From Psammoneis japonica (taxonomy: Eukaryota), in assembly GCA_008632985.1 (NCBI GenBank), contig QPGO01000075.1, positions 188,517 through 252,516 of the forward strand: DNA of 64,000 bases, given 5' to 3'. The position numbers and the translations under genes are program-made. A model generated the notes under the pieces. It had not been told where the DNA came from and did not search any database. It worked only from the letters and a program-made list of their open reading frames with translations. Of the stretch, positions 1 through 64,000 are shown one piece after another; position 1 is the stretch's first letter, and every line of letters begins with the position of its first letter.

Positions 1-1807
1 TACGACGTGAAACACGACGGTCGCCACAAGGCATGACTCGTAGCCGATGGGCACCTCACGGATGCACCCATCGACAGTGTCCACTCCGGAGCAGTCTCCC
101 TCCGTGGCCTTCGGCTGATGATTTTCCTGGCCGAACTCAACAAGTTGGAGACATGGGCCACCGACGTTGGCAATGCCTGCCTTGAAGCCACCACCAAGGA
201 GAAGCTCTACATTGTAGCCGGACCCGAATTTGGCAAACTCGAAGGACACATCCTTGTCATCCACAAGGCCCTGTGTGGGCTGCGCAGCTCCGGTCTCCGC
301 TGGCACGAGCGCTTCGCCGACTGCCTGCGAGCTGAAGGCTTCTTCCCCTGCCGTGCCGAACCCGACATTTGGATGCGCAGGAACGGCGACCACCATGAAT
401 GCATTGCCGTTTATGTGGATGACCTCGCCATTGCTGTGAAGGACCCTCAATCTTTCGTCGACACTCTCACGGAAAAGCACAAGTTCAAGCTCAAGGGCAC
501 GGGACCCATTGAGTTCCATCTGGGTTGCGACTTTTCCCGGGATCCCGACGGCACCTTGTGCCTGTCTCCGCGCAAGTACATCGAGCGCATGGTCGACAGC
601 TGCACCCGACTGTTTGGGGAGAAACCTGCCACCAACGCTCTGTCACCTCTGGAGAAGGGTGACCACCCCGAACTGGACACTTCCGAGCTGCTGGAGCCCG
701 ATGGCATTCACAAGTTCCAGTCTCTTGTTGGTTCACTCCAATGGGCAGTGTCCCTTGGTCGAATTGACATTGCCACGGCCGTCATGTCACTCTCTAGCTT
801 CCGAGCTGCACCCCGTCAAGGCCACTTGGATCGTGCCAAACGTGTCTGTGGGCACCTCTCCAAGATGCGACACGGCGCTCTCCGCGTTCGTATGGAAGAG
901 CCCGACTGTTCGGATCTCCCTGCTCCGGCCTGTGAATGGATGCATTCCGTGTGCGGTGAAGCAGAAGAGATGATCCCGAAGGACGCTCCACCACCCCTTG
1001 GCAAGTTCGTCACTGCCACCCACTACGTCGATGCAAACTTGTGCCATTGCATGCTCACCGGACGCTCTGTCATGGGAATGCTCCACTTCCTCAACAAATT
1101 CCCGGCTGATTGGTTCTCTAAGAAGCAAGCCACCGTGGAGACTGTGACCTGCGGGTCTGAATTTGTTGCCGCAAGGACTTGTGTCGAGCAGATTGTCGAC
1201 CTGCGCATCACCCTGCGCTGTCTTGGCGTCCCGATCCACAATGTCAGTTACATGTTCGGTGACAACAAGTCGGTTGTAGACAGTGCCACCATCCCGCACT
1301 CCAAGTTACACAAGCGACACACCGCACCATCGTTCCACCGTGTGCGCGAGGCAATTGCCTCTGGTTGCCTTGAGTTCCACTTCATCGAAGGCTCCCGCAA
1401 CCCTGCTGACATTCTCAGCAAACATTGGGGTTGCTCCCAAATCTGGGACCTTCTCCGCCCCCTCATGTTCTGGAACTTCATTCCATCCGAAGTCGAATCT
1501 GTTTCTGTGGCTCCTCAAGCAAACTGGGGAGTGACAAGATTTGAACAGGATTCAGGTGCGCGCGAAATGTCGCGCGCTGTTTAGTTTGCCGCGCACAGTT
1601 TTGTGTGCTTTAGTTCCGCACGTTTGCGCGCGATGCAGTTTGCTTTCGAGCCACAAGGCTCACAAGAACAACAACAGCAGCCCAATTGTACCGACTCACA
1701 CGTCTTTTGGCTCCTGCAGCGGTCTCTGAGCGGAGACTCATCTGCCATTTAGACAGCAGCAAGGAGTCATTGTTTGAATTCTTGCCATTTGCCTTCAATT
1801 TCTGTCA
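1..1807 (+). mobile_element. 3' part of a Ty1/copia (CoDi-like) LTR retrotransposon: RT, RNase H, polypurine tract and 3' LTR; inactivated
   Basis: Frame 1 reads YDVKHDGRHKA*LVADGH (TGA at 34-36 where Arg is expected), then copia RT motifs (KAL[C]GL, YVDD) and RNase H motifs (W.SKKQ..VE, DNKSVV, NPADILSK). Purine tract GGGGAG lies just before TG at 1532. Confidence 0.95.
1532..1807 (+). repeat. 3' LTR of the copia element
   Basis: Begins TGACAAGA directly after the purine tract and ends TCTGTCA, giving TGACA/TGTCA inverted termini. The 5' LTR is outside the window. Confidence 0.7.
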
Positions 1808-4800
1808 TTTGTGGTCATGAGGCAAAGGGGGAACAAGGAATCCACGTGACTAGACCCCTTGAAGGTGTGACACGATTTTGTGAAAATGTTCGGTTCTGAT
1901 TGGCTGAGGGGATCTGTGTGACGCAGTTTTTCAATCAGCTCCCCACGTGTTCTGTGGTGCAAATGTGCATGCACTGTTCTGGTGCAAACAAAAAATGTTG
2001 CATGCTCAGGTCGAGCTCCACAATCAATCTAAAATCATCTGCAACAATTGTGAGCTCCGCAGCTTTCAATGGTCTAAAATGGGCATTGGGAACGGCATCA
2101 GAAATGAGCCACAAAAGCAGCGGCTTTGTTGCCACTTAAGCAGCACATGAAGAACAGAGTCTCTCCTCTTCTGTGTTCTCTTTTTTTTCTCTTTTCTCTT
2201 CTTTCTTTTCCTTTTTGGTCTAAAATGTGCTCCAATGGCATGGTCTAAAAACCCATCCAGCACCATCATGCAAACAATCACAAGCACAACCAGGATGAGG
2301 TGCTCATGACAATCGGCACCACTCCTCACTGCTCGCTGACATTCTTCTCACCGGCAGTTGTCTCTCGAGGGAGGCATTGATGTTGAATGTTGAGGGCAGT
2401 CCAGCGCCAGTTCAGGATGTTTTGAAATCAGCCAAGGTTCGCCACTGCACCAATGCGCTCATTTCCAACATGTTGCCTCAACAAGGTTGTCAGTTTGGAG
2501 ACCCCAAGGGCAATGGGGCAGTGGCGACGGCTGTTTGCATGGACTGATCTACGCTGCGACAAACAATGTGAGCATCGAAGATAGTCAGACATGATTTTGA
2601 AAACAAAAGGACCCTTTTTCTTGAGCAAAGAGGAGTTGCAACAATGAGGGTGGGTCATGGGGACTGAAATGAATGGGGTGCTTGATGCCATGGGATCTCA
2701 AGTTTACAATCACGTTGGAAATGGGGTCTTTGCAAGCACTGGATTGACTCATGGTGGCATCATCCAACACTGCCAAACAACAGCTTAAACGCAGTGGTGT
2801 TGTCATGGAAGACAACACAGCAAGGCATCTCCTGAATGCATTCATCCTGCAGAAGAAGTTGCAGAGCACCACATTCAAGCAAATGAAGTGGAAAAAGAGG
2901 AAGACGAAAGTCACAAAAAGGCCAGACAATGAGAAGAAGAGATTCACAAATGAGGAGACAAATTGCGTGCTTTTGTTCAGGAAATGTTGGGGGACTTGTC
3001 ATCTGCTGGTGAGTTTGCAATTGCTTGCATTCAACTCATGTGTGTCCCAGCTTCCTGTTCTCTCATGTGTGCTGTGATTTGTTTTGAAGATGTCAAGATC
3101 CAGATGTCAAGGCTGAAATTGTTTGAGACAATGAAACAGGCGCTTCTCTCCAGTCTGACTTTGTCAAGTTTTCTGACCAGCAAACGTGTGTGTGGGGGCA
3201 TGCTTTTTAGGGAACAATGGGCTCATTGATGGCCTCCACACTGAGGTGGAAGTTTCACAGAGTGCAGCAAAAGTGTGGAACAAGTTTGCACAGTGAAATG
3301 AGAGCACCTGGAGGTGAAGCCACGACCCAATTAAAAGAGAAGCCATCCATGTTCTTTGCCAGAAAACATGATTCCATCAGCTGACATCTGCCAAGCAGTG
3401 GATGCCATTAACTGGCATCTGCCAAGCAGCAGTCATCATGTGCAGAAAGATGCCTCAAAGGGGGAGTTCATTGTTGACAGGGCTGACACTCAAATTGCAG
3501 TGCATGTGCGATTGATGATTGAGAGCCGCAGTCATCGGGCCACACAACCCGTTGTTGTGCATCGATCCATGCACGAATGAAAAAGTTGAAGTGTTCTCAA
3601 GCAACACATCTGAAGAAATCACTCCTTTCATCAAGAAAAGTCCAAGGCAAAGTTTCTGTCAAAAAGGGCCACCACAGGATCATGCCTGAGCTTGCACAGA
3701 AGTGGAAGTTTGCTGTCGACAGGGCAGATGCTTGAACCACAGATGCACGATTTAGAGCCATGCGTCATGGGGCCAGATGAACTTGTTGTGCATTGATCCA
3801 TGCACAGATGAAAATCAATGCATGAATGACGAAGTGCAATCTGAGGAAGCCACGCTTTTCATCAACAAAATCCAAGGGCAAAGATCATCGGAGGTCAACC
3901 ATTGCAAACCTGACTGTGTTTCACTTTGTTCCTGCTGCTGTGTTTTGTGACTTCTTGGAGAGTTGATCAAGCTGCAGCGACCCTGCATTTCTGCTTTTGG
4001 CTTCACTGGACCTTGTCTCGGATGTTGGACTCATTGTCCAGCACTTGATTGAGAAGCAGGAGGGAGGAGGATGGGGTGCATTTTTCATTGTCAGGTTTGC
4101 CTTTTGGTGCACACATCCATTCATTTGATTGACGCATGAATCCCTCTCTCTTTGTTGTGGCAAATCCCAGAAACAAGATGATTTGGAATGTGCTCTTAAT
4201 GTTGATTGTTGGTGTGGGTGTGGTGCATTGGGCACACCAGTTGGACTCGTTGCAACTTTCGAGAAGGTGTTGCGTCTTGCACCAGCTGTGCTTGATCCTC
4301 TCCTTGCACTTGGGTGCTTGAGTTCAACAGGAAAATGTGCCAGTCTTGTTGCGGAACATCTCTGTTGTTGTGCTGCGAGTGAACAGAAATTCATGTTGGC
4401 GCTTGTTCCCTCCCACTTTCTTGTTTGCCATGATGTGTTGATGACGGTCCTCGCTGGTGGACGTTGGAAGATTCAGCTTGTTGAATGGGAAGAAAAAACC
4501 AAGAAAGATTGACAAAGTGACTGCCTTTTGGAACCTTCACAGGTTGTTTCCCTGGTCATTGTTGAGGAACTCTTCGAGAATGTCGGCGGAGCACTCACGG
4601 CGATTGGACACTTCACACGGAATGTGGGGGTTCAGCCTTGACCACAATTTCCATCATCTTCACTGGCTTGTCAACAGTCGTTGAGACTGGCAAGTACATT
4701 GGAGACAGGCACAAGATTGAAGAAAGCAACAACAAAGAAGAAAACCAAAGCGATGACCTGTGAGGCTCTGTTCACAGAAATCTTGCATTCCGCTCAAATC

Positions 4801-5100
4801 TGACTCTGGATTGGGCTGTCCATGCTGTGTCTCTGCCACTGTGTTGCATGAGGTCATGACTTTCTGTTGGCACTCACAGCTCTGTCATGAATTGGTGTGG
4901 TCACAACTTGATCCCAAGCGGCTTGGGTGACTTTGACAAAGCCAGCCTCGGCAATGTGAAAGCTTTCCACAATGTCTCATGAAAGTTGGTCTTTAGAGAC
5001 TGTCTCTCTGGCCGGAGGATGATCTCGAACCCCATCACAATCCTAGTTCTCTGTAGAAGGGATGAATGTCTCTGTGCTGTATGAGTGCAATCAGCACATC
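1808..5100. other. Decayed repeat-derived tract, depleted of TpA and CpG
   Basis: Very few TA dinucleotides (survivors mostly TTAA, CTAA, TTAG), excess TG/CA, and no credible ORF. Confidence 0.7.
3460..3890 (+). repeat. Two diverged tandem units of ~240 bp
   Basis: gacagggc...gttgtgcat(c/t)gatccatgcac...tctga.gaa..cac....ttcatcaa.aaaa..ccaagg.caaag occurs twice. Boundaries are approximate. Confidence 0.6.
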
Positions 5101-5249
5101 TGCTCTCTACTAGAGTGCAACAGCAGAAAAATACTTCGAGAGCGGTACGAATGGAAGCCATGTTAGCACCGCGTGGTCGAATTTTTAGTCTTTCAGTCAC
5201 GAACACGGGAGTCAGTCACGAGTTCTTGTTGTCGCATTCATTCTCGGCC

Positions 5250-5936
5250 ATGGCGCTGTCGTCTCGTCGAATCTTGTCCCTAAACCGTGCATGGAGTGTG
5301 GTTGCTTTCATGGCGCTTCGAATATTGTGTAGCTCTGCGTTTGTACCAAGGGGGCTCGTGACTCCAAATCGAAGAAGCTATCTGACAACATCAACATACC
5401 GCGTGAATCCAAAATCACGCAAGACACATCAAACGTCTACGTGCCTCATGTCTACCAAAACAGCGGACGTTATTCCCCGTGCAGCTGTATCAGTTGTGGT
5501 ACGATGCGAAGTTGAGGAAGAACCCAAATATGTTCTGGTTCAGCGAGGCAAAGAACCCAATTATGGTATTTGGTCCTTACCTGGAGGCAAAATCGAGATT
5601 GGTGAAGCAACGATGGATGCCGCTCGACGAGAACTGCACGAAGAAACCTTACTGATGGAAGGCTTGAAATGGCACGACAGTCCGTTTCGTTCGAGTGATT
5701 CTATTCACAGAAAAGATGACAACGAGGTTTCATACCACTATGTCATTTCTCAATGCTTCTGCACAAGTTCCACGTTTAGCGAGCTCCACCCTTCCGATGA
5801 TGCTGCAGACGCAGCTTGGCTTACTCTGGAACAAATACGACAAAAGACAACAATGGGACACGTGACACCTGGTGTGGACGACGTGATTGCACATGCTGAG
5901 CGATTGTTTTCAAACGGAATGTTACCTTGTGACTAA
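5250..5936 (+). CDS. Nudix hydrolase, probably plastid-targeted
   Basis: Nudix box GGKIEIGEATMDAARRELHEET; signal peptide followed by SSAFVP (ASAFAP-like). Start at ATG 5250 is inferred. Confidence 0.9.
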   Translation: MALSSRRILSLNRAWSVVAFMALRILCSSAFVPRGLVTPNRRSYLTTSTYRVNPKSRKTHQTSTCLMSTKTADVIPRAAVSVVVRCEVEEEPKYVLVQRGKEPNYGIWSLPGGKIEIGEATMDAARRELHEETLLMEGLKWHDSPFRSSDSIHRKDDNEVSYHYVISQCFCTSSTFSELHPSDDAADAAWLTLEQIRQKTTMGHVTPGVDDVIAHAERLFSNGMLPCD

Positions 5937-5983
5937 CGATATAGAGAATGCAAGTGGACAACTTTGAAGCTACAGCGTTACTG

Positions 5984-7051
5984 TTATTCCAAAATAGTCA
6001 GCCCAGCCAACGAAGGATCACCAAGGACAGCAACCAGCAGACCATTGGTGCCGTACCACAAGAGTACGCCGCCTGTTAAAGGTGTTACCCACGGCGCGAT
6101 CTTTCCGTATACCGAATCTCCGCTACTGTCCTTGAGATTAGCGAGAGCTTGTCCGCCAGTTGCCGCAACCACCAGAAGCGGTGTCGAGTATCCAAGAGTG
6201 TAAATTAACAGGTACAATGTACCCAAAAGGGGATCTCGCGTATTTGCCACATAAGCCAAGATTGATGTCAAGACGGGAGTAGCACACGGCGAAGCCACCA
6301 GGGCTGATGAACCTCCGAGCAGAAATGTCCTAAGAAGTGATCCTCGTTCTTGTGCTTCTTCTTTGGATTTCATAATATTACCCTTGCCATCAATCAAGAT
6401 TTCACCATTCAAGTTGTTGCTATTGTTGTTTCCTAGCTCCAACGACGGCAACGGAAGATCCACCAAGTTGAGCAACTGTAATCCCATGGCCAAACACACT
6501 CCAGACGACAAAATTGCTACAGCCAATCCTCCGGGACCACTGTCGGCACTGGCTCCAAATACACCTCCCACCAAAGACGCAATCAAGCCAAGAGTACAAA
6601 AGACACTGGCCAATCCCGCCGCAAATGCAACGGTAGGAATGGTAGCTTGCTTGTCGGCTCGTTCACCTGCGGCAGTGGAAATGTACGACATTGTGATTGG
6701 TAACAGCCCCCAAACACAGGGAGAAACCGATGTCAAGAGACCTGCTCCATACATGATCGGCAAAGAAGTCAACGTCGACGATGGATCTTGTAGCGAGGTT
6801 GTGGCCAAGCTTGATGCCGCAGACTCTGCATTGTACAAGATTTGCTCCCAATCCATCGCGTTGAGTGCCGATATTCTCTTATCATGATTCGTTCTAACAT
6901 AACTTGCATGAAACGCTTTCCTTCTGTAGGCTGGCGAGACAAATGAATCGACAATCGCAAGATGCATGACAACAGCCACTATGATACAGAGAAATGTGCG
7001 ACGTGAAGATCGGCATGATGCGTGGCAGTTTCTGCGTGTCGGTCTCGACAT
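5984..7051 (-). CDS. ccdA: Cytochrome c biogenesis protein CcdA (DsbD transmembrane domain), plastid-targeted
   Basis: Redox Cys motifs AGLLTSVSPCV and ASPCATPVL, multiple hydrophobic helices, bipartite presequence (VDS-FVSP). Confidence 0.92.
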   Translation of the reverse strand: MSRPTRRNCHASCRSSRRTFLCIIVAVVMHLAIVDSFVSPAYRRKAFHASYVRTNHDKRISALNAMDWEQILYNAESAASSLATTSLQDPSSTLTSLPIMYGAGLLTSVSPCVWGLLPITMSYISTAAGERADKQATIPTVAFAAGLASVFCTLGLIASLVGGVFGASADSGPGGLAVAILSSGVCLAMGLQLLNLVDLPLPSLELGNNNSNNLNGEILIDGKGNIMKSKEEAQERGSLLRTFLLGGSSALVASPCATPVLTSILAYVANTRDPLLGTLYLLIYTLGYSTPLLVVAATGGQALANLKDSSGDSVYGKIAPWVTPLTGGVLLWYGTNGLLVAVLGDPSLAGLTILE

Positions 7052-7560
7052 TGATTCAGCGTGAGCTCTTGTCAGTTGTTTCTGCCTTATTCCACTCCCC
7101 TTTGTATCATAACAATAGCACTGGATAGATACTGCTTTGAATGGCAGAATTAAGGCGTCTTTCCCTCTCTCTGCTTTCTCTTTTCTCTCTCGCTTCTGCT
7201 CTCTTCATCTTTTTCACCGCACTTTCCCCGCGAAGCGATGAGTGAGTCAGTCGCGCGCGTTACGCGCAAAAAAGTCCATCCGACTTCGACTACTCCGACT
7301 GACTGTGACTGACTCACCCGCCAAAATTTGCGACGATGCGATCATCACAAAAATGTAGAAGAGTTCAACACGAGTAAAGGCCAACAACAGCCATACTTGG
7401 CATCATCTTTCAAAAGCGAGTGTGCCCCATAAAACGTTGCCTTGGGTAAACCACGGTACTTTACTTGATCTTCTTGTAACTTCTTTGCGTTTCTGAAACG
7501 AAACGAAAAGAATTGCTGCGGGTGTGGGACCACCAAACAAAGAACAAAAAGAAAACAAGA

Positions 7561-8496
7561 ATGAGGGTGTGTCAAATCGGATTTGCAGCGTTGGTTTCGC
7601 TGGCGTGCATGCCTTCTGCGACATCCTTCTCGCCAGTACCTATTAAGTCATCAAGAAACGGCTATACATTTCGCCATGAGCTATTCGCGACAGCAACGGA
7701 TTGTGTGGATGAGAGCCGTGTCGATGAAGCAACCATTTATTCGGGCGATCCCTCTCGAAAAGCGAGAAATTTGAATCCTCGAGAGGCGATTCGTTCGAGC
7801 AAGTTTTATACAGTCAATGGAGAGGAAACCAGTCTAGACAATCTCATTGGCGATCCTGACAGCAGTGGGATATCCATAGTGGTATTGCTACGAAGTTTTG
7901 GATGACCCTTGTGCCAGGAGCTTCTGCTGCAATACAGTCAACGCAGACAAGAGCTTCTGGCCAAGGGTATTGATTTGGTCATGATTTCGATTGGCAAACC
8001 CAATGTCGGACGGGAATTGTTGGATCACTTTGATTTGTTGCCAGACGGACAGGACTACCTCTTTGCCGACCCTGACAATGCAGTTCACAATGATTTGGAC
8101 GTGAATCGAGGCATTGCTACCTTGTTTGGGAAAATGTCAACTCCGTTGGCATTTCTAAAGCGATTTCAAAAGAAGGACGGTACTAAAGAATTGACCAAGG
8201 TGTTATCGAAATGGAGCAATGGTACGTGCTTGCGTGTGATTGGAGCAATTGCGTATTCTTGGCACATGTTTCTGACATGACGTATCTCACGCTGTGCCTG
8301 CCTATCTCTTTGTATATTAGCTGTTTACATTCCTCCCAAGCGTGGCCAGTCTACGATTCAAGGGGGGACGTTTCTTTTCGATGGACCAAATACAATCCTA
8401 GCTCACTTTGATGAGTCGGTCGCAGACCATGCCGATATCGATGAAGTGATTCAACTCGCCACGCAAAGGTTGGAATTGAAGCAGACGACAGAATAG
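7561..8496 (+). CDS. Peroxiredoxin-like (AhpC/TSA_2, SelU/PRXL2-type) selenoprotein; exons 7561-8221 and 8321-8496; TGA 7903-7905 read as Sec
   Basis: Reads VLLRSFG-TGA-PLCQE (UxxC) in frame. After GT-AG intron 8222-8320 the frame gives the family motif QGGTFLFDG...H.D....DH and stops at TAG 8494-8496. N-terminal signal peptide plus ATS-FSP. Confidence 0.88.
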
Positions 8497-8544
8497 AAGC
8501 CTGATCACTGATAGTACAATACACAGAGAGTTTGTTTCCTCTCT

Positions 8545-8600
8545 TGATAATGACGCTACTCAAGTCGGAGACCTCGTTCCTATTGTGTAGCTGACGCTAG
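8545..8600 (+). promoter_or_regulatory. Candidate SECIS element in the selenoprotein 3' UTR
   Basis: ATGAC (8550-8554), then stem GCTAC-t-CAA pairing with TTG-t-GTAGC, then TGAC (8592-8595): the kink-turn core geometry. Apical mini-stem GGA/TCC. No canonical apical AA and helix I is weak. Confidence 0.55.
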
Positions 8601-8705
8601 TTTCTTTGCATGGCAGAGGAATTCGAGAGGGAAACAATCACGGATGCGGATACTCTGGTTCCAGGCTTCAATTATAGTATGGCATTCTACTTTGTTGAAC
8701 CATTA

Positions 8706-8881
8706 TTGCGCAAGAAAATTAAAAGAGCTTGTCGTAAATTTAAATCTAGGGTGAGAATTTCGGTTTCCTGCTAGCGCAAAAATTTTTGGACCGTTTTTGC
8801 AAAAGAAAATTAAAAGAGCTTCTCGTAGGTTTAGATCGATTCTTTCCCTACTCTCTAGAGCGAGGGAATTTCGGTTTCCTG
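8706..8881 (+). repeat. Short imperfect direct duplication in intergenic DNA
   Basis: aagaaaattaaaagagctt.tcgta and gaatttcggtttcctg each occur twice. Confidence 0.7.
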
Positions 8882-9445
8882 AACGCCAGAATCATCATCA
8901 TCATGATAGGCGTGACGACAAGCAAACACGTCTGAGATCGAAAAACACGTGAGAATTCGCGCTCACGTATGCGCAAACAAAAAGATCTCATTGGCAGAAA
9001 TGAAACATCCACTCACGAAGCTCAAGGAAATTCTCAATCAAATCTTCATATATATCTTTGTAGATGACTATTACATATCTTTTTCTCAAACAGATGTGGC
9101 GATCCGAATCCAGCTGGTTCTGACCATGTCGTTGTGAACAGACGGCATCGACGCGTCTGCTTGTGTTGAATGACGCAAGTCAACTTGCTGATGGGTTTTC
9201 GTTGTTGGTGTGGGCATGATGTAGTAAAGAGAAGAAGTCGCCGTACGGAAAGCAAACTCTGACATCGCTGTTGCTAAAGCCTGTTTGTCTATTCGCTGAA
9301 CCTTTCATACTCTCTACTAGTAGAGTTCTCAACAATCAACATTTTTTTCTATTGAAATCATCAACTATTCTCTCTCTCTCTCTGTACAAAGAGGTCAATA
9401 CCTACAGTACTACTAACACTAAAGAGCATCTTCCACTAGCTTGGT

Positions 9446-10878
9446 TTACTTTCCAGAAACAGCATGAGCAATGTTCTCTCCAAGCTTCTTGACCATCTCG
9501 ACCGGTCCCGAATGCTTGGGATGGAATCCATAAAGCGGAAGACTGCCGGGTTCAGGCACTCGTGCCGGGTAGGTATCGACCGCATGAAGCTTGGACAAAC
9601 TGACCCCACACCTCTTAATCATGGACTCTTCTGCCTTGCGAATCCAGACACGCGGGTCGTAATTCTTCTTGTTTGGCTTGTCGGGTCCGTCGGGATTGCC
9701 AATCTGTCCCTGAAGATAGTCGTGCTTGGCGGCTTCAAATTCACGAAGACCGTCCCAGTAGGCCCACTGGGTGTCCGTGTCGATATTCATCTTGATGACA
9801 CCGTTCTTGACGGCCGTGGCGATTTCTTCATCGGTCGATCCCGATCCTCCGTGCATGACTAGGAAAATGGGCTTGTCGTTGTCCGACTTGAGTTGTTCCT
9901 TGGCATAGGCTTGGTGCTTGCCGAGACGCTCCGGCTGGAGCGTCACGTTGCCCGGCTTGTAGACACCGTGGACGTTACCAAAGGCGGCGGCAATGGAAAA
10001 CATGTTTCCAATCTTGCTGAGGCGGTCGTACACCGCATAGACTTGTTCGGGACTTGTGTAGAGTTTCTCCGGATCGACACTCTCGTTGTTGACGCCGTCT
10101 TCTTCTCCTCCCGTGATTCCAATCTCCATCTCGAGCCAGATCTTCATGGGAGCCATGCGCGTAAAGTACTGAGCGCAAATTTCAATATTCTCCTCGTCGG
10201 GTTCTTCCGAGAGATCCAACATGTGCGAAGAAAAGAGCGGCTCTCCATACTGCGCAAAGTACGCTTCGTCGGCTTGCATCATGCCGTCAAACCACGGGAG
10301 CAACTTTTTGGCACAGTGGTCCGAATGCAAAATGACGGGAACGCCATAGTAGGGAGCCACGGCACGGACGTGAAGCGCCATGGCCACCGCACCGGCTGCC
10401 GCAGCGTTGGGGTCCTTGCAGCCCTTGCCTGTGAAAAACGCAGCGCCGCCGTTGGAGACCTGAATTATCACGGCAGAGTTGTTGTCGCGGGCGGCTTGCA
10501 AGACGGCATTGCACGTGGAGGAACTGAGTTTTGAGAGAGAGAGAGAGAGAGCAGTGGGTGAGATGAGCATCTTCTTCAAACTCCTTCTGAAGAATCTTTT
10601 GCAGACAGAGAATTTCGCATATATCCCGACAACAATCCGACTTACCTGGTGCAGTTGAAGGCAGGAAGAGCATATCCGTGTTCGCGAGCATGACTTAGGA
10701 GTTTGACAACATCGTCTCCGGTGATTACACCTGGGGGAACATCGCAGGGGTTACCATGGTTGGAAAAAGAAGGTTGGAGTCGTGTTGTTGCACTTGTGGT
10801 GTCGTCGGGCACACGTTCTTTTTTTGTGGTGTTCTCGTCAACGACAGCGAAAAAATCTTTTCTCGCTTGCGGGAGCAT
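9446..10878 (-). CDS. fba: Class II fructose-bisphosphate aldolase; intron 10524-10645
   Basis: Motifs HSDHC, EMEIG, FGNVHGVYK, HGGSG, KMNIDTD. Splicing restores GVITGDD...PAFNCTSSSTCNAVL. Start codon is uncertain and no plastid presequence is evident. Confidence 0.95.
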
Positions 10879-11284
10879 GGACTTTGGTTCAAAGTAAGCT
10901 AAATTGTCGATACGTAAAATTTGTACTGATTGTATGTATGACGCCAGAGAAAGGATTCTTCAGTATTAAATTCATGTACAAGCTACGTCAGTATCGAATC
11001 TGCGTGGCATCTACGACTGCCTACAAACTTCCAAAACTTGGGTTTCGAGTTCTGAGGAGCGCGAGTCGCCTATCTGTTCCTCGTCCGTCTATCGATCAAC
11101 ATCATCTCGGCCGCTCATTCTTTTGACACAACATGACACATGACGCATCAACATGACCACCATGACGACGACGACGACGAGATGAGATTGAGCTTTGCCT
11201 TGTTCGAACAACGTGGGAGTGCAAAGACATGCAAGACCTACCTTGAATCTTTTTTAAGTTTTGAGAAACATCAAGAAATTCTCC

Positions 11285-14200
11285 ATGACGTACCGATACT
11301 TATTCTTTTGTTGTGTCCTGCTGTTGCCTGTGAATGTTCGTCAGGCAACCAGTCGGCCTGCTGACTTTGGATTAACTTCACCGCAAACAAAAGACTCCCA
11401 CAAGTCTTAATTTTGGATGTCGACAATACTCTGTATTGCGAAAAAGAAATCAAAACCCGTGCTGGACGAGGAATTGAAGAGCAAATTGTAAACAACATCC
11501 ACTCCTTTTGTCAACGACAACTCAACATGTCGCCGCAACAAGCTGACCAACTGCATTACGAATATGGGTCTACCATTGAAGGCATTCGACACGTGCTACT
11601 CGAAAACAAACGGGCTACGCCGCAGCAAGTATATCAGTTGCTGGACGACTTTTATCGCGAAGTTTATCAAGACATTGACGTGTCTCCTCTACTCGTCGAC
11701 ACGTCGTTATCCGACACTAAAAAGGATGATACGGGATATAGCCACGTTGCGCAAAATCAAGTCTTGGCCAATTTATTGCGCTCGGCTCCATGTCCCATTT
11801 ATCTAGCATCCAACTCGCCAAGTTGGCACGTGGCACGAGTGTTGCGGGCGTTGGGATTGGCAGATGTGGCCTTTGCCGGTTGGCTCACGCCCGACACGAT
11901 GAACAACAGGATGCTTCAACTCCCTATCCCACAAAGGTGCTTTCCAACGTCTTTTATCATCATTGTTGCAAAAACACAAAATTTGATTCTCTTGGATGAT
12001 TCCAAAGTAAATATCGAGCGTGCTGAACGGGATGCTGGAATCAAGGCATTTTCGTGTCGCACAACCATATTTCATTACACAGGCCTTGAGCATGGCATTG
12101 GGGCATTTAAACCAGAATACGACTTTTCAGAGATACGATACTTGGCTGCCAAAAATCTGGTGGATGCCCGTTCCATGCACGCCCCAACGTGGAACGAGGT
12201 TGGCAAGCGCTTGGCAGACATTCTCAAGACTACAGGCGATACAACACTTTGCATTGCCGATGTTGGCGCGGGCATTTTGTCCATGCTGGAACTCATTGTA
12301 ATGGGTCATGTGGAAACAAATCCGTCCTTGATTACTCTGTTGAAGCGTCAAGACGCAAACTATCGACAGCTGCACTACTATGCATATGAACCAAATCTTG
12401 GTCTGTTTCGTGGTTGTCACGCAACGCTTACTCGTTTGGGTTTTGTGAGCCAACCCACACAAAATGCTAACGCGGATACAGCACCAAATGCTGGCAGTGA
12501 ATACATTTATCGACATGAAACCATGGATATCACGGTTCATTTGCGAATGAGAGATTTTACGATAGATTCCGTAAAACAGGAGACATCTCCACCACACCTT
12601 ATTGTGGGATGCTGCTTTGCAGACCTCATGGACCCGAACAAGCTGGTCCAGTCAATGCATGATTTTCTTGATACTTGCAAAGGACCAACATCCAACATAC
12701 ACCACGAGGTCTTGGTGTACTTTCCAATTACATTTACCGGGACGACGCAGTTTGTTCCCCCACGGCCATTTGACTACAAAGAGTCAACCACACGGCGGCG
12801 GGGCGGATCCATTCCGTCGGATACGGCTGCCTTTACCATGTACGCACATGCTCTCCAACACAAGTATGGACACAATTTGAATCCCGACGCGTTGATTTCC
12901 GCAATGCAAAGCCATGGCAATCATCTCTTGGCGCGCGGTGCCTCGGATTGGGAGATTGACCCGATTCACAACTCGTACTTTTGGAATACAATGATGTACT
13001 TTTTCGGCACAGTTGCAGCACCCGAATTGGCAACCCATGGATGGGACGCAGCGGGCTGGGTCAATCGTGCCAGAGATACTCCAGCAGCTATCAGAGTGTC
13101 CAATGTGGACTTGCTCTTTGGTTTGAAGCCTTGGAAAGGCTCGTCGTGGGAAGCAACTATGGAGAGTGATGCGCCAACGTTGCACAATGAGGGATTCCTC
13201 AACATTCGAGAAATTCAATTTGTAGCTCCTTATCAAGTTACGACGAGAACCAAAACCGTAGATACACGGCATGCAGCGCACTTGGGACCGAACCAAGTGG
13301 AAGGTGAGCCGACTTTTCTTCCTTTACAATGCGTAAAAGTATTCTCTTCCCTCATGTTGCCGCTTACACTTTGTTTAAAGTCACGTCGGTTTGCTCGCTT
13401 ATCAGTTCTGGAACAGAGCTAAAGATATTCAAGGGTCTTTTTGATGATGCCGCTTTGGATGTCAACATCAAAGGCATGGATAAGGAGCGCATGGCGTATC
13501 CGCTTACCTATGGCTACAGTCTTGTCGGGCGAGTTACTCGTTGTGGAACAGACGTAAAGGACGCAGAAAGGTTGTTGGACAAGCTCGTCTTTTGTTTTTC
13601 TCCGCATGCGTCGCATACCATTGTAGACCGGGACAGCCTGCACGTGGTTCCGGATGGAATTGATGCACGGGATGCAATATTCATGCCGTCCGTCGAAACG
13701 GCATTGTCGCTTGTACATGATGCACACGTTCGTGTCGGCGAAAACGTGGCTGTCTTTGGACAAGGTCTTATCGGTCTACTCGTGACTTGTATCCTGAGCA
13801 AGCAGACTATCTCTGCTGCCTTTTGTAGTTCTTGCTTTGGGAGGTTCGGGACTACTACCGTGTTCGATACAATACCGGCACGACTAGCTGCTGCGAGTGT
13901 TATGGGCGCATCGGAAGCTCTAATGGCACAGGATGTAGATAAGGCAGGTCCGTTTGACGTGACCATTGAGGTGAGTGGTAACTCACGGGCACTACAGTCT
14001 GCAATCGATCACACTTCATCGGGAGGAAGAGTAATTGTCGGCTCTTGGTACGGAAATGCCGATGTTCGCTTGAAACTGGGAATCGACTTTCACAGAAGCC
14101 ACAAAACCATCATTACGTCCCAGGTTAGTGAACTTCGCGCAGAGTTGATGGGTCTATGGACAAAGCAACGACGCTTCAGCCTTGCTTGGGAACTAGTGAG

Positions 14201-14327
14201 GCAGATTCGCCCGTCACGGCTCGTCACGAAAACAGTGACACTTGACAATGTCCAAGAAGCATATGAGCTGTTGGAGAGAGGCTCAGAGATTGCGGTATGT
14301 TTTGACTACACTAGTCGATATTCGTAA
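11285..14327 (+). CDS. Fusion of HAD pyrimidine-5'-nucleotidase-like, SAM methyltransferase-like and MDR alcohol-dehydrogenase-like domains; intron 13304-13380; apparent frameshifts in the 5' part
   Basis: HAD motifs DVDNTLY, YGSTIEG, LLDDS; methyltransferase-like DVGAG; MDR motifs ISSGTE, YGYS.VG, GQGLIG, IEVSG, GSWYG. The GT-AG intron joins ORF 11413 to ORF 13329 in frame. The 5' end is uncertain. Confidence 0.75.
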
Positions 14328-14365
14328 TCGATCCGCTACCTTAGACTTTAGTGAAGGATTTTTTT

Positions 14366-17300
14366 CTAGTTGAACACTCGTCGGCGGTAGAAAAGAACAT
14401 ATGCAGCCGGAGAAACAACACCAAGACCGTCATTTCCGCCCCTCCCGTCTCCAACGCTCCTGACGCTGGAATCATCAAACAATGCCCAATCTTGGGACAT
14501 TCCCTCTTCATTCCATTTACGAGCAAAGGCTGTGTAATGCCCAAAGCCCAATCTACCATAGTGGTTTGTGACAGCAAACAAGTCATAAATTGCCGGGACA
14601 CCATCTTCCACGACGAAAACCGGCGACTGTTGATCGCCCGCATCATTGTTGGTCTCCGACTTTGCTCCATTTACCACTGACGCAGACGCGCAGTGCTTGC
14701 TCATGTCTAACCCGTCCAAAGGAAAGTCGACAAGTGTATCTAGCTTGTCTCGCCTCAGTGCGTGTTTGAATTCAAACCGCTTCAGGTGCACTACCAATAT
14801 GTTTGGTAACCTCCAGAGTTGCATCGTTTTCATGGCCCGCACGTGTTCCTTGCACCGTGAGCAATACCACTTGTTGTGTTCGTCTAGCCGTTCAGGTCTC
14901 GTAAATGTGTCAAAACACTGCTCAATAGTGACTCCCTTGAAACCATTCATCATCGCCCGTTGCTTCTGTAGTCCTTGAAGAAGACTTGGGTGGTCCACAA
15001 AAGACAAGAAACGATCTGTACTGTAGAAGGAAGGAACGTGACGATAAGGCTCTTCGCCATCGTCTTGTGTCAAAGTCGGGTCGCGCCACTCAAGATGCAC
15101 AAAAAGAAACCGATCCGTACAGTCCCTTCCAAGAAACTTGGTTAGTTTCTCATTCGAGTTTCGAGGGAGGATAGATGCGGCATCCACCACGCCCATGGTC
15201 TCCATGTTGGATAAGTCGTCGTCCAAGAAGACGGGACGAGGAATTCCAGCATTATCAACGATTCGAATTTTCAAAAGACTTTGCAAATACGCCTCGTATT
15301 GGATTTCTTCAGCTTGGCCCTCACCGTTTTGGACGCGATCCTCATCATCCCCAATCAAAAGTCGAACTTGATTCCACAAGCTATCCCAAACCTGCTTACA
15401 AGAAAGGTCCGCATCGAATGACGCTACAAACGGAAATCCAAACAATCCTCTGGTATCTTCAACTTCGTCGTCATCCAACTCGTCGTCAATCGTTGGCGGA
15501 GCTTTCAATGCGCTACAAGTGTTGGATGCAATAGTGTGGATAGATGTATTTGTGTAAGGATCAACTTCGTACGCTGTAAGGACGTCCGTTGCCTTGACCG
15601 TGGAAAGCGGTTTGCCATCCTGCAGAATTTCATACACAGCGTGCTCATAGATGTCACAGATTATGAAATGCGTAACGGGGATCCGGCAAAGCTCCGACAA
15701 GGCTCGTTTCAAATCACCCACAAACTCATTGCGCCGAACTGTAACACCGTATCGAGTTGGTATTTTGTTCATGGACGCTCCGCCAGCCGAAGGAACCACC
15801 AATACTGGTATCGTTCGTGTCGAGGTGTGAAACTGCGGTATTTCCAAACTGACATGATTGAAGGCGTCAAAGGAGACAGAAACGCGGTTGCAGTGTGGAC
15901 AGACGCAGGTGCTTTTGAACTGCCCGTAAAAAGTGTCCATTACAAGGCTATCGTTGCGAAGTCTGTGTGCATCCCAAGCTTCCGCGCCGGCAATAGCCAT
16001 GCACGGACCAACCGTGGGCATTTCCACGTAAGGAGCCTTGCGGATTCGATTCAAATCTTCGTGCAAGCCATCCAACAGATACGCCAAGAACTCCTGCGCA
16101 TCATGCTGCGAACAGCCCGCAAAACGAGGAGCAAACATGGCAATCGCACGCTTGAGAACAGTAGGGCTTGTACTAGAATGACCTCCTTTAGCCTGAGCCA
16201 TCCAAATATCCTTCATGACAACGTTGTAGGCATGAGCCAACTTGCCGCCAGTACCAAGGGGATTGGTTGCGTTGAGGTCAGCTTTGAATCCATTCGATAG
16301 AAAGTGTCTCGTCAGAGGGGTAGCGTGGCTCAGACATTGAAGCGCCGAGTTCATAAAGCACGTATTGCCCAAATTGTTTAGTCCCACTCTACCCAAGTTT
16401 TCACTCTCAAGCTCGTGAACTTCCATTGCAATCTGCTGCTGTTCTTTTGAAATGGTTTTGCAAGCAAATTTATGATATGGCCAATGACTCTCCTGGCAAG
16501 AACGGTCGCAATAATGTGCTGCAAGGCACCGAGTACACCGCGACTGGACATTGGGCTTGTGACAAGCGCAACAAATGTATCCTCCGAGCCGTCCTGGTGA
16601 CGGTCGTGTATGCTCTGGGTAAAGCTTAAGCACCGCCTTTGGTGGATCCATTACTACTTTGACTCGTCGACAAATACTGGGCGTGATCTCCCCATACCAG
16701 ACGCGGAGTGCAAAATATATTTCCCTCGGCAACAACTCATAGTGATAACCGCGGACCAAGTTCGGCAACAGCAACAAAGAACATCCGTCCTTGTCTTCTC
16801 GTTTCTGTTGTTGTAGGTGTGGATTCCATTGTAGATAATAGTCATGCAGAGGACTTGTCGTAGCTGTTTGAGGCGGTGAAACAAGCAAACAAGAATTATC
16901 AATCACGTCCGGTGGTCCAGATGTAGCCTGGGTCACTAATTCATCATCATCGCTATCGTCCGAATCGCTACTCGAAGTTGGCGAAGTTGATCTTGCTTTC
17001 TTCTTCTTCTCCATGATTGGTATAGAGGATCCTGGCGGTAACAATTTGAGAATCTCGATTTGTCGCTTTTCGATTGTAGTGGAGTTTTGCATGTAAAAGA
17101 AATCAGTGTAATGGCACCAGGCCATCCACCAAGACCAATTCAACAAAAAGAACGCTTCTCCGTCCAAAGGCATACCACGAGCTCCGTTCTTTTTCTTTTC
17201 TTGTATCTGTCGTGCCATAAAGAGTCGAAAAACATCTTTTCGTTGCTGTTGCGGGGGTGGCGGGCCACTGGTCCTATCCTGAGGAGGAGGTTCAGTTGCT

Positions 17301-18035
17301 TCTGTCTCTGTCTGCTTCTGTAGCTTCTCTTTGGTATTTTTCATTCGCTGCAAAGCCTCGCTCGCGGCCTTCATCATTTTTTGTTCAGCAGGGTTAGGCT
17401 TGGACGGAAAGAGCGATAAACATTGCTCCACATCGGAAACAGCTTGATCCAGGGCATTTTGATCATCTGCATGGCTGCTTAGTCCCTCTCTCGCAAGTCC
17501 TCGGCGATACCAAACTAGCAAAGACAAACGCGGAAAGGTAGCAAAAGTCCATAATGAGCAGAACAGAATCCGTGAAGCCCCACTACCGTTGACCTATCTT
17601 TAACGCACCTTTTGTATTGGTAGAGTCTAGTTGAATGGCCTTAGTACACTCCTCCTGAGCGTCAGAGTAGGCTTCAGATTTCAGAAGCACCATTGCACGA
17701 TTCGCGCGTAGCGCCACCTCTAGATCTATTGATTCCTGTCCGTTATCTGGTAGCCCTTCGAGATAATCCAGTCCCTCCTTATAGATTCGAGCAGCCTTCA
17801 CGTATTCTCTAGCAGCAAACAGAGAATTCCCTTGCGTTTTCAGTTGCACAGCCTGCTCAAACGAGGCGGAAGGACTGACTTTGTTGCTCTGTTCCTTTTC
17901 GTGAAGAGGAGCTGAATACCCGCTCTCTCCGTTTGGTGCATGACTACCTTCTACTCTATGAGGATCATCTGTCGTTGTGCCCTCCATAGTTGGTGTTGAA
18001 TCGTCACCGTTCTCGGACAACGGAGCAGCCGCCAT
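14366..18035 (-). CDS. Ubiquitin-specific protease (USP4/11/15-like) with TPR, DUSP-like and MYND zinc-finger regions; intron 17515-17608
   Basis: Cys box GLNNLGNTCFMNS, QHDAQEF, His box NHYG...GHYTA; MYND C..C...C..C....YC...CQ..HW..HK..C. Splicing gives TPR NTKVWYRRG. Confidence 0.93.
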
Positions 18036-18251
18036 GGTCAAAAGATGCTGTCTTGCTTCGTGCTTTGCTATGGAGTCCGCCCGACGCCCGACGTCCAACC
18101 AATCGAAATATGTCTGGTCATTGTGCGTAGAAGCTAACAGGAAACATATACGGCGCGATTTCATATGCGCGTCTCAGATTTGGCGGGAAGAGCGTCAGTC
18201 CAGCTGTCCGTCAAAGTTACACGTCATCATCGATCCAGATCTCTGTTCTCA

Positions 18252-19273
18252 CAGAAAACGTATCCGCGGTATGGTAAGTGCGGTCATAACGGCGGTATGG
18301 AAATCTGATTGGATAAACGACGTCAGCTAAGAACCTTGTTGTTCACAATAAGTAATGATGACATCATCCTTACCCCACCATCCGCCCCGCCGCCCGGCCC
18401 GCCGCGGCGATTTGCTGCGCCCCAACTTCAAAAGAAACATTCACAAGTCCCCAAGTAGAGACTCAGCAAGACAACACATCATGATACACAAACAGCACGA
18501 ACCGCCCATGACAGCGGAAACTTTCGGACTGGTGAGCATAAAAATAACACCATTAGAACCGCAGCCTTTTTGTTAGTACGTGTGTGTTGTTTCTCTTTTT
18601 GTTCAATGCAAGTGCGACCCTCTTATGGGACAATTTCAGCAACTTTCAAGTAGAAAGTTTTGCACCGTCCTTCTCGGGCCATTTAGTCTACCTACTCTAA
18701 AATCATTTAACTTACAAATAACAACGTTCAATCCGTCATATCTAAATTACTCTGTACGGTAGTTTCTGTGTCATAGAGATCTAGTTTAGGGACCTTATGC
18801 ATGGCTTTCTGCGATGCATGAAAAGACCTGAAAATTCTTGCAATACAACAGGTCCATTTTGGAAAGAAGTACGCAAAGCGTTACCATTTCCTTCTCTACA
18901 CATATCATAACTACTTCATATTATCGATTGATCCTACTTCTATAGTCATAAAGTCGAGAGAAGTTGTCCAAAACAACCACACACCGCCATGGCGACTTGC
19001 ACAAAAAACCACATCTCATTCCACGTACAATTCTACGTGCGGCTTCAGTACTTGACGTGATGCGTCTGATGCGAGTGCTACGTGCGCGTAGGGCCATCCG
19101 CCGGTACGTACTCGTACCTACATATCGGTAGATACTGGCAGGTGCTTGGGGGCAATAATGATGTCAACATTACTTATTGTGAAGAATAAAGTTCATAGCT
19201 GACGTCGTTTGTCCAATCAGATTTCCATACCGCCGTTATGACCGCACTTACCATACCGCAGATACGTTTTCTG
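18252..19273. mobile_element. Non-autonomous MITE, Mutator-like
   Basis: Terminal inverted repeats of ~120 bp (CAGAAAACGTATC.GCGGTATGGTAAGTGCGG...); 9-bp target duplication ctgttctca (18243-18251) and cttttctca (19274-19282); no coding capacity. Confidence 0.88.
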
Positions 19274-20320
19274 CTTTTCTCACTTTTTTCTTTAGGCACC
19301 ATGGCAACTGCAAGCGACGATAGCAAGGATGATGAACCGGATCTTCTAACGCCACCACCCAACTCAGATGTTTGCGATCGCCGTCTTAGTCGAGCGGCCC
19401 GATCGATTCTTGAACGACATGCTCTGCCAATATTAAATCATTACATGAGTGACAAAGTCGCTGCATCAGGCGAGACCAAATCCTTGGCTCCCGAGTCGTT
19501 GTGGCAGGCACTGCAAAACACTATTCAAAATCACGACACGTGCGTGCTCAACCCGACCCGAGATGTCTATTTTCTGTCGGAACGGAACGCCTTGTTGCAA
19601 GCTCAAGTGGGAGTACCTCGACAACAACTTCCGTATCGTAGCGTTAATTCCTTGTACGAGTGCGGGATTTGCGGAAAGACATTTTTGACGCGCTACTATC
19701 TGGATTTACACATGGATAGCAAGCACCACGATGAGTCAAGCAACAATAGCATATGTCCAGCCACGTCGTGGTGTCAATTTCTTGGTGGAGATGCGTCTTG
19801 CCGTGTTCAAGCCTTGGAGGACGAGCCTTATTACGGTCGCGGCAGTGGTGGACATGGTGTTGACTCGGCTAAGGTACGACGGGAATGGACCAAACAGCAC
19901 CAGGCACAACAGCATAGATGTCGGCAAGAAGATATGATTCTATCGCAACAACAGTGTCGACAAGTCATGCACCAATGTTTCTCGCACGATTTGGCAACAG
20001 ATCTTGTCCAAGCCCTCTGCGACGGCTTGACTTGCCAAGATGCTCTGCATCGACTCATGGGAGAAGCACACAGACATGTTCATTCATGGAGGCACGAATG
20101 GAATGTGAATCATCGTGTCAATTTCGGTTGGAGTGGCACGTTTGTCATTGCTTTCCTAGTCGTCTATTACTCATTCAGGGCGTTTTCAAAGCTTTACAAA
20201 TCACGCGCCCAAGCCAACACTGCCCACAAGTCATTTGCATCCGGGAAATCTACGCGCAAGAAACAAGAACAACTTAGGTTGAAACTTAAGAAAACCAGAA
20301 GCAAGAGTAAAGTGCAATAA
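19238..20320 (+). CDS. Cys-rich protein with one C2H2 zinc finger and a C-terminal transmembrane helix
   Basis: CGICGKTF....YLDLHMDSKH finger, many further Cys, hydrophobic TFVIAFLVVYYSF. Start is 19238 (inside the MITE TIR) or 19301. Confidence 0.8.
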   Translation: MTALTIPQIRFLLFSLFSLGTMATASDDSKDDEPDLLTPPPNSDVCDRRLSRAARSILERHALPILNHYMSDKVAASGETKSLAPESLWQALQNTIQNHDTCVLNPTRDVYFLSERNALLQAQVGVPRQQLPYRSVNSLYECGICGKTFLTRYYLDLHMDSKHHDESSNNSICPATSWCQFLGGDASCRVQALEDEPYYGRGSGGHGVDSAKVRREWTKQHQAQQHRCRQEDMILSQQQCRQVMHQCFSHDLATDLVQALCDGLTCQDALHRLMGEAHRHVHSWRHEWNVNHRVNFGWSGTFVIAFLVVYYSFRAFSKLYKSRAQANTAHKSFASGKSTRKKQEQLRLKLKKTRSKSKVQ

Positions 20321-20354
20321 AGCCGTCTACTACAACGAGCGATGCAACTATGAT

Positions 20355-22661: not shown

Positions 22662-23055
22662 GTCAGCGCTTTGTCGACAATTCACTCCGAGTGACGAGGG
22701 CGTTTGTCTCTAGGTGCGGTTGCTTTGATTTCAATAATGATTTCTAGCTGACGCTTCCGACCACTGGGTCACGTCTCTGTGATATAGGGCCCTATGTTCA
22801 TCAATTGATCCTCTCGCTTTTCGGCGTATTGTGTTTCTATTTTGTCACTGTGTTTGGGAGGTTTTACACTTCAAAATGTGACGCTGGTTTCACTACCCGG
22901 CCGCAGTATTACGGACGCAAAATAGCTAGGGTATGTAAATATCCATACATGAAGACAATGAGTACGAGTACAAGAACATTTATGACAGCACGGCAGCTCA
23001 TTTTTGATTCCAGATATCTCCCCCCTTTTTCCACTCTACTGCCGCTGCTTTCACC

Positions 23056-23503
23056 ATGACGGACATCAAGATCAAGTTGCTATTCTTTGCATCGGCAAGA
23101 GAGGCTGTGGGAAACGTTAACTCATCAGATATTTATTTGAAGGCTGACTCCGATACAGCGCGGTTGCGGTGAGTCAGCCTTAAGTATTGATTGGAACTGC
23201 CTGTGTGTTTGTCGCCTCCTTTTGTTTTGCGTTTGCGAAATGCAGGTAGTTTATGTTGTTGGTCTCCCATCTACCACGTTCTATTGTGATCTGATCCGCT
23301 GATACGGTTAATTAATTTCAATGTGACGTGTTATTCATTTCAGAGAATTGCTGGCAGAAAAGTATCCCAAACTCGCATCAATGGTGCTTGACGAAGATAA
23401 AGTGACGTTGGCGCTAAATGAGGAATATCTATCGCCGGGTGAGCCAAAGAAGCTAAAAGATGGCGATACTGTCGCTCTCATTCCGCCTATAAGTGGTGGT
23501 TAA
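23056..23503 (+). CDS. MOCS2A: Molybdopterin synthase sulfur-carrier subunit (MoaD/ThiS fold); intron 23169-23343; absent from the ORF track
   Basis: Spliced product MTDIKIKLLFFASAREAVG...LALNEEY...LKDGDTVALIPPISGG* with the C-terminal GG. Confidence 0.93.
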
Positions 23504-23561
23504 AAATTCTATAGCCCAATTTCAAATTGTACAAGATTTCTTTTGGTCTCGTGTTGTTGTC

Positions 23562-33400: not shown

Positions 33401-33519
33401 GTGCAACGCATGAAAAAAATTGCTCCATTGCAGCTCAGCACTGCAAGACCCTGCCCAGAGCTGGAACAATGTCAGGAGAAGCAGCCGATCCTTCTGAGCC
33501 ACAGCCTCTGCACCACTGG

Positions 33520-63850: not shown

Positions 63851-64000
63851 AAAACACACCTGACAGCAGTGCTTCTTTTGGATGACAGGGAAGAAAAACT
63901 TGTGTTGGTCACAAATGAGGGACATTTTGCATTCCCCATGGAGCCTTTTCTCAATGTTGCCCCTTTGTGTGCTGCTGCCATTTCCATTCCGGCGTGCCAC

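Follow-up and report, generated by a model that had tools for sequence, protein, structure and literature searches.

What erases the dinucleotide TA from repeat DNA that borders ordinary genes, and does the process read the bases around its target? The question is raised by a 64,000-nucleotide window of the Psammoneis japonica genome (contig QPGO01000075.1, positions 188,517 to 252,516, forward strand), in which three tracts, T1 to T3, have lost most of their TA. Within them the observed/expected ratio (o/e) of TA is 0.01-0.19 and that of TG and CA 1.5-2.2. The tract/genic density ratio is 0.12 for TA and 1.43 for CA/TG, and the boundaries between tracts and genes are sharp at 250-bp resolution. 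A first-pass annotation had noticed that the surviving TA sites are mostly YTAR (Y, pyrimidine; R, purine), a tetramer with 5′-TAY on neither strand, and had proposed an enzyme-like preference for 5′-TAY that falls short of an absolute rule. This survivor bias is very probably the footprint of context-dependent mutation at the DNA level, by which the A:T pair of TpA is turned into G:C in silenced repeat DNA.

Context bias of the surviving TA sites

The tracts together (33.3 kb) retain 155 TA, comprising 75 YTAR, 73 mixed and 7 RTAY sites, against 1159 in 30.5 kb of genic DNA (181 YTAR, 615 mixed and 363 RTAY). T1 keeps 34 (19, 11 and 4 in the same order), T2 21 (14, 6 and 1) and T3 100 (42, 56 and 2). 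When two TA-retaining islands in T3 (49800-50300 and 55740-56200) are left out, the tract survivors number 71 YTAR, 54 mixed and 5 RTAY. The departure from genic DNA also shows in four tract segments taken one by one (chi-square p 1e-6 to 4e-9). The interval in which the bias was first seen bears it out, 17 of its 22 survivors being YTAR, and the individual sites quoted as examples are present: TTTAGA at 1750, CTAGAC at 1851, TCTAAA at 2075, CTTAAG at 2137, and TCTAGA at 36835 and 55985, inside one identical 10-mer. TTTAGC is retained in both copies of a repeat (43120-43345 and 48377-48596), as had been stated.

Normalised by length, survival spans a 100-fold gradient over the ten NTAN classes. 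It is highest at TTAA (0.56), followed by CTAA/TTAG (0.34), CTAG (0.26), GTAA/TTAC (0.16) and CTAC/GTAG (0.125), and declines through ATAA/TTAT (0.08), ATAG/CTAT (0.053), GTAC (0.046) and ATAT (0.011) to ATAC/GTAT (0.005). The NTAN counts in mutated and genic DNA contradict a uniform depletion (likelihood-ratio chi-square 139-144 on 3 degrees of freedom, df). They agree with a preference for 5′-TAY and not an absolute rule, the YTAR class itself being depleted about 3-fold. The order of survival is unchanged when normalised by the tracts' own dinucleotide frequencies, a measure by which genic DNA is YTAR-short and RTAY-rich, the reverse of the tracts. It is also unchanged against a second baseline of 67 unmutated metagenome Copia loci holding 12,393 TA; the YTAR/mixed/RTAY shares are 16.7/50.1/33.2% in these loci and 15.6/53.1/31.3% in genic DNA. 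As a control, the tract/genic ratio varies between flanks 75-fold for TA, compared with 2.4-fold for CG and 2.0-fold for TG.

The bias could in principle be an artefact of the baseline, if the ancestors of the tracts had an NTAN make-up unlike that of genes. Most tract DNA is without recognisable origin, only 6 of 150 tract reading frames matching any Pfam family at E <= 0.01, which gives this explanation some room. It is nevertheless extremely improbable: the two unrelated baselines agree, the flank variation of CG and TG is only 2-2.4-fold, and tetramer losses and gains balance (see below).

A half-site rule extending over two bases

The gradient can be described by a model in which each strand of a TA is attacked independently at a rate set by the base or bases 3′ of the A. 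Poisson fits were made on 136 strand-collapsed hexamer classes. Fitted half-site hazards (in ln units) are 2.4 for T, 1.5 for C, 0.7 for G and 0.3 for A as the base after TA (position +1). The four palindromic classes on their own give rates of 2.25, 1.54, 0.68 and 0.29 for the same bases, and these predict survival in five mixed classes of 0.38, 0.16, 0.108, 0.079 and 0.053, the observed values being 0.342, 0.162, 0.125, 0.080 and 0.053. For the sixth mixed class, ATAC/GTAT, 0.023 is predicted and 0.005 observed (one site versus about 4 expected).

Adding position +1 to the null model improves the fit by a chi-square of 139 with the genic and 144 with the Copia baseline, and adding position +2 improves it by a further 78 and 102, respectively (3 df in each case). 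The base at +2 counts about as much as that at +1, and its effect is seen in all four tract segments. The additive model with two half-sites, fitted against the Copia baseline, has a residual deviance of 125 on 120 df (p 0.36). On that baseline hazards are 2.4-3.2 ln units for TATN, 2.5 for TAGG, 2.0 for TACC and 2.7 for TACT. They lie at about 1.1-1.3 for TACG, TAGC, TAGT and TAAG and about 0.9 for TACA, TAAC and TAAT, and reach 0.07 for TAGA and -0.38 for TAAA (-0.26 with the genic baseline). With +1 and +2 of about equal weight, protection belongs to the half-site TARA and not to YTAR as such. Hexamers of the form TYTARA, in which both half-sites are TARA, are undepleted: the tracts contain 21 and genic DNA 18. 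Their survival ratio is 1.07 relative to genic DNA and 1.11 relative to the Copia loci. Beyond TARA, the base at +3 is A in 44% versus 25%.

Direction of change

The first-pass annotation had also read most changes as TAY to TGY and RTA to RCA, and here the balance of products, a polarised repeat pair and a Copia relic all agree with it. At one-sided sites the rule predicts that YTAY becomes YTGY and not YCAY. Strand-pooled tetramer losses and gains balance in each flank class (18.1 versus 17.3, 18.9 versus 20.8 and 11.8 versus 9.2 per kb), and the class with a pyrimidine on both sides gains 11.6 TG but 5.7 CA per kb. With the loss of CG split evenly, YTGY takes 86% of the TA-derived gain (bootstrap interval 70-109%; none of 1000 resamples at or below 50%). 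To cancel this excess, YCGY would have to become YTGY in 83% of cases, and the comparison of CG-poor with CG-retaining tracts suggests a split near 57:43. Against the Copia baseline the YTGY share in five segments is 0.70, 0.85, 0.99, 0.87 and 0.93, and overall about 86-90% of YTAY losses go to YTGY.

Repeats within the window are few, and one polarised pair was usable (226 bp plus 48 bp), with one copy nearly unmutated at the edge of the gene island and the other mutated within T3. Two further pairs (32213-33302 / 62705-63829 and 3517-3652 / 3749-3883) were left unused, both copies being mutated and too diverged (65-73%). In the usable pair 13 of 14 TA are altered, all to TG or CA. Of its eight one-sided sites, seven obey the predicted direction; the eighth, cgTAaa, became TG. 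Along the tracts there are no strand-coordinated patches of TG or CA, the sign of a processive attack on a single strand; autocorrelation is about 0 and TG about equals CA per kb. The attacks therefore look independent, site by site.

A forward simulation, in which mutation rules are applied to genic DNA, reproduces the tracts better with context than without. For the 36 tetramers with a central YR the misfit is 339 for a context-free rule, 131 with the +1 rule and 158 with +1 and +2; for all 136 tetramers it is 1120, 706 and 629.

The Copia relic and its relatives

The dead Copia-type reverse transcriptase frame at the left end of T1 is 63-70% identical to its best relatives, which are diatom-type, one being labelled by source as Cylindrotheca (a diatom). 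At 17 tyrosine columns conserved in 68 relatives the relic reads 9 Cys, 3 His, 4 Tyr and 1 Phe. It differs from the consensus at 42 amino acids, 17 of TA-type and 4 of CG-type. Single-step differences number 33, again with 17 of TA-type, and at the A of TA there are 12 transitions (A to G) versus three transversions. One-sided sites at the nucleotide level changed as predicted in seven cases versus two, a set that overlaps the Tyr-column sites. Nucleotide alignment to 64 unmutated relatives leaves 20-23 conserved TA columns, most of them in Tyr codons, and a table of contexts would need more.

Pol eta-like error-prone repair synthesis deserves mention here. Pol eta makes A to G errors at WA motifs (W, A or T), TA being the hottest, and the minority of transversions at TA in the relic (3 versus 12 A to G) would suit it. 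Its further prediction, that AA should change to AG, was the check proposed with the original observation, and it came out negative. AA is undepleted (tract/genic ratios of 1.06 for AA, 1.04 for AG and 0.95-1.21 for AAN trinucleotides, compared with 0.12 for TA), a single-step change of AA to AG accounts for none of the 42 Copia differences, and A to G at AA for one of 48 differences in the repeat pair. Such a mechanism is very unlikely.

A different alternative concerns the survivors themselves. The surviving YTAR or TARA sites might be new TA, created by C to T or G to A at the abundant CA and TG, or might stem from A-rich ancestral DNA. The slightly negative TAAA hazards (-0.26 and -0.38), the TYTARA survival ratio above 1 and the over-representation of A-runs in the tracts are what biased creation would give. 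So is the position of the 12 TA left in the Copia reading frame, seven of which lie outside the conserved-TA columns, where five TA persist. Yet the tests of direction, which are independent of the survivors, yield the same rule, TTTAGC is retained in both repeat copies, and a new TA could last only where destruction is slow, so that creation adds to the preference and does not replace it. As an account of the bias, creation is distinctly improbable.

Among 80 environmental relatives of the element, TA is erased in one locus, L073 (o/e 0.02; 3 TA in 2766 bp), and partly in another, L072 (0.33). Ten relatives (L004, L005, L006, L012, L021, L032, L056, L058, L059 and L070) have a CG o/e of 0.10-0.27 with a TA o/e of 0.46-0.84. 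Decay of CpG is thus common in these elements and erasure of TA rare.

A separate decay of CpG

The repeats in the tracts have also undergone decay of CG to TG or CA, as seen in their low CG o/e and in 15 CG changes within the repeat pair. This loss is uneven, the CG o/e in the tracts ranging from 0.05 to 0.85. It is 0.46-0.76 in 43500-47000 and 53000-61000 and 0.05-0.27 in 31250-39000, whereas the loss of TA is equally deep throughout; the two decays are therefore uncoupled. CpG decay runs separately and leaves the TA pattern unexplained, its flank range being only 2.4-fold. The two have opposite effects on composition. A and T each make up 0.258 of the tracts versus 0.261 of the genes (A+T 51.6% versus 52.2%; G+C 48% in both), because A to G changes at TpA are offset by C to T changes at CpG. 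As the two decays cancel, G+C profiles alone would miss the tracts.

The TACG half-site stands where both processes could act. Its hazard (1.3) is below that of TACC and TACT (2.0-2.7), though CG decay removes TACG as well. The TA process may be hindered where the A is followed by a C that is presumably methylated.

Nature of the agent

Put as a mechanism, the rule has the two strands attacked independently. In 5′-T-A-N-N-3′ the pair of bases that follows the A governs the rate on its strand; on the opposite strand this corresponds to the pair that precedes the T. Rates fall in the order TAT > TACY, TAGG > TACR, TAGB > TAAB >> TARA (B, any base except A), with TARA near zero. Sites of the form TYTARA are effectively immune, RTAY is attacked from both sides and vanishes, and at one-sided sites the pair beside the pyrimidine flank changes. 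The agent so described would be a base-modifying enzyme that acts as a monomer and whose footprint spans -1 to +2. Its likeliest candidate, which we favour tentatively, is a nucleic-acid adenine deaminase acting on DNA, converting A to inosine that is read as G.

The natural site of the tRNA deaminase TadA is U33-A34-C35-G36, and its contacts with the tRNA loop run from -1 to +2, matching the footprint proposed above. TAGA occurs in the anticodon loop of tRNA-Ser AGA, a substrate of the eukaryotic ADAT2/3 enzyme. The immunity of TAGA in the tracts departs from that context and weighs against a deaminase of exactly this type. The TadA-derived editor ABE8e A48E is described as preferring a 'YAC' context (PMC13109818), in which the target adenine has a pyrimidine on its 5′ side and C on its 3′ side. 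In the tracts TAC is hot (1.5), TAT is hotter (2.4), and the preference at +2 is for any base other than A, not for G in particular.

The same changes could be produced from the other strand. In a thymine-directed chemistry the T of 5′-R-T-A-3′ would be modified or oxidised and become C, through TET/JBP-like hydroxylation to hydroxymethyluracil or formyluracil or through a glycosylase with biased repair. Oxidised thymines mispair with G. Such an attack is fully equivalent to the TAY description, the same base pair being changed, and its footprint from -2 to +1 is as plausible as one from -1 to +2. The sequence, however, offers nothing that favours it over adenine deamination, and the sole published analogue proposes adenine deamination in its main text (10.64898/2026.01.13.699255). 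We regard attack on thymine as unlikely.

Editing at the RNA level by an ADAR-type enzyme, acting on double-stranded transposon RNA and fixed in DNA via reverse transcription, shares with the process described here the A to G outcome and a preference for 5′ U/T (PMC11334849), and Copia elements do replicate via RNA. ADAR needs double-stranded RNA, though. It prefers a 3′ G, its favoured site being 5′-UAG-3′ (PMC11334849), whereas in the tracts G after the A lowers the rate, so that TAG is colder than TAY, and TAGA escapes altogether. Erasure extends equally to a relic of a hAT DNA transposon and to DNA that cannot be classified, both strands are equally affected site by site, and the edges of the tracts are sharp against genes. 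RNA editing is therefore very improbable as the source of the pattern.

Several observations weigh against a DNA-level, context-dependent process with the rule given above. The ancestral state was taken from proxies (neighbouring genes and foreign Copia elements) in place of an observed ancestor. A-deamination at TAY and T-modification at RTA alter one and the same base pair and are inseparable by sequence. In the repeat pair cgTAaa changed on the unexpected side and one TTAG was mutated. On the central-YR tetramers the simulation with +1 and +2 does no better than that with +1 (158 versus 131), and the simulation overshoots ACAN/NTGT and undershoots GCAC, TGCA, AAAA and CCCC, misfits that probably reflect ancestral composition. 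AAAA/TTTT occurs in the tracts 1.4 times as often as the simulation predicts. A-runs were probably more abundant in the ancestral sequences, which would inflate the apparent immunity of TAAA by roughly 0.2-0.3 ln units. TA is ordinary in nearly all of the 80 relatives, so its erasure is no general property of these Copia elements. The one strongly erased relative, L073 (1-2766 of a metagenome contig), shows five one-sided changes on the hot side versus six on the cold side, three of them at a TAGA half-site. Its strand-pooled YTGY/YCAY ratio is 0.79, compared with a median of 0.89 for 78 other loci and 1.13-1.48 for the tracts of the window, and its composition-based YTGY share is 0.03, with a poor mass balance. 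L073 may come from a different lineage whose preference differs, or its discordance may be noise, the locus covering 2.7 kb.

Comparison with known systems

Searches of the literature on diatoms, TpA, transposable elements, A-to-G change and genome defence returned only papers on fungal repeat-induced point mutation (RIP) and one preprint on the alga Bigelowiella natans. A single match for 'TpA' in a chromatin paper on P. tricornutum (PMC4504042) proved to be 'Tpase' and was discarded.

The preprint, by Mettrop et al. (bioRxiv 10.64898/2026.01.13.699255), describes in its main text de novo mutations of A:T to G:C in the integrated DNA of giant viruses and virophages, confined to TpA; it proposes a genome defence and suggests an ADAT2-like DNA adenine deaminase. 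Common to both cases, as far as that text goes, are A:T to G:C changes almost exclusively at TpA, giving TpG or CpA according to the strand, with TpA depleted and CpA plus TpG enriched. In both, foreign or repeat DNA is affected and its neighbours are spared; here the tracts bear Copia and hAT relics and the genes retain a TA o/e of 0.41-0.76. B. natans, however, is a rhizarian, and its 231 de novo mutations were followed in accumulation lines, whereas the present case is a fossil composition in a diatom-type stramenopile. The main text of the preprint deals with the dinucleotide only, gives no flank analysis and describes neither a four-base preference nor an immune TARA.

Fungal RIP is likewise a dinucleotide-specific transition mutator of repeated DNA that leaves sharp-edged, skewed tracts. 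RIP turns C:G into T:A, mainly at CpA, and so creates TpA, whereas here TpA is destroyed, CpA and TpG are created and G+C is kept (48%). Change in the direction opposite to that of RIP (PMC2621366), with a TA ratio of 0.12 and a CA/TG ratio of 1.43, sets the present process apart from it.

Organisation of the window

The window consists of gene-dense eukaryotic DNA whose reading frames are long and poor in introns. Products encoded in the gene island include, by Pfam, NUDIX, DsbD/CcdA, a class II aldolase, a UCH protease with MYND and DUSP domains, Sec6 and a Patched-like protein. Across the 150 tract frames scanned, Pfam's own cut-off is passed by the Copia RVT_2 and the hAT dimerisation domain only, the remaining matches being weak and at chance level, so that ancestral states could be drawn from protein for the Copia relic alone. 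The TA-rich island within T3 looks like a younger unmutated insertion, for example a miniature inverted-repeat transposable element. Coordinates are collected in Table 1.

Table 1. Tracts, repeats and other features of the 64,000-nucleotide window
Feature	Position	Strand	Remarks
TA-erased tract T1	1..5050	.	TA o/e 0.04-0.19 per kb; includes the Copia relic at the left end and the interval 1580..5100
Copia-type reverse transcriptase relic	37..1581	+	Pfam RVT_2, E 3.8e-20; dead, partly TA-erased reading frame
Interval of the first-pass claim	1580..5100	.	22 TA: 17 YTAR, 3 mixed, 2 RTAY
Gene island, unmutated baseline	5100..31200 plus 39050-43400	.	TA o/e 0.41-0.76, CG o/e ~1
TA-erased tract T2	31250..39000	.	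Most decayed, CG-poor too; TA o/e 0.02-0.14, CG o/e 0.05-0.27
TYTARA example TCTAGA	36833..36838 and 55983-55988	.	Immune sites
Repeat copy, nearly unmutated	43120..43345	+	Gene-island edge; self-BLAST 77.5% identity to 48377-48596; 14 TA
TA-erased tract T3	43500..64000	.	TA o/e 0.01-0.15; CG partly retained at 43.5-47 kb and 53-61 kb
hAT dimerisation relic	47595-48191		Pfam; within T3, erased like other tract DNA
Repeat copy, mutated	48377..48596	+	13/14 TA changed (8 to TG, 5 to CA), ttTAgc alone kept; 15 CG changed
TA-rich island within T3	49800..50300	.	17 TA, mixed classes; inverted repeat arms 49917-49982 / 50102-50167, 74% complementary
Smaller TA-retaining patch in T3	55740-56200	.	7 TA; adjoins weak Plavaka-transposase-like frame 56256-57656 (E 0.004, under Pfam cut-off)

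Two further repeats were noted. Within T2, the most decayed tract, two tandem 101-bp units (36594-36795) are 99% identical; they were duplicated after erasure, or have been homogenised. The unmutated gene island holds an inverted repeat (18252-18376 / 19149-19273) of 125 nt with 92% complementarity and a 772-nt spacer, which may be an intact small transposon that was spared erasure.

Significance

The only report so far of TpA-specific hypermutation of invading DNA is a preprint on an unrelated alga. A quantitative context rule provides a testable specification for candidate enzymes and speaks against mechanisms of the ADAR, unmodified ADAT2/3 or Pol eta type. It also predicts which TA in a new insertion goes first, and with what product, and it lets annotators who classify decayed diatom repeats undo the damage in silico, restoring TA from TGY and RCA. 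The reading of four bases by the TA-erasing process is a fingerprint that could help to identify the enzyme.

A yet more tentative proposal is that diatoms possess a hitherto undescribed DNA-editing genome defence, a 'reverse RIP', whose enzyme would strike either strand of silenced repeats at 5′-T-A-N-N-3′ and spare only TARA. If this is true, the four-base fingerprint could single out the enzyme among the encoded deaminases and thymine-modifying enzymes and distinguish variants between lineages, and the environmental locus L073 would be a second variant with another flank rule.

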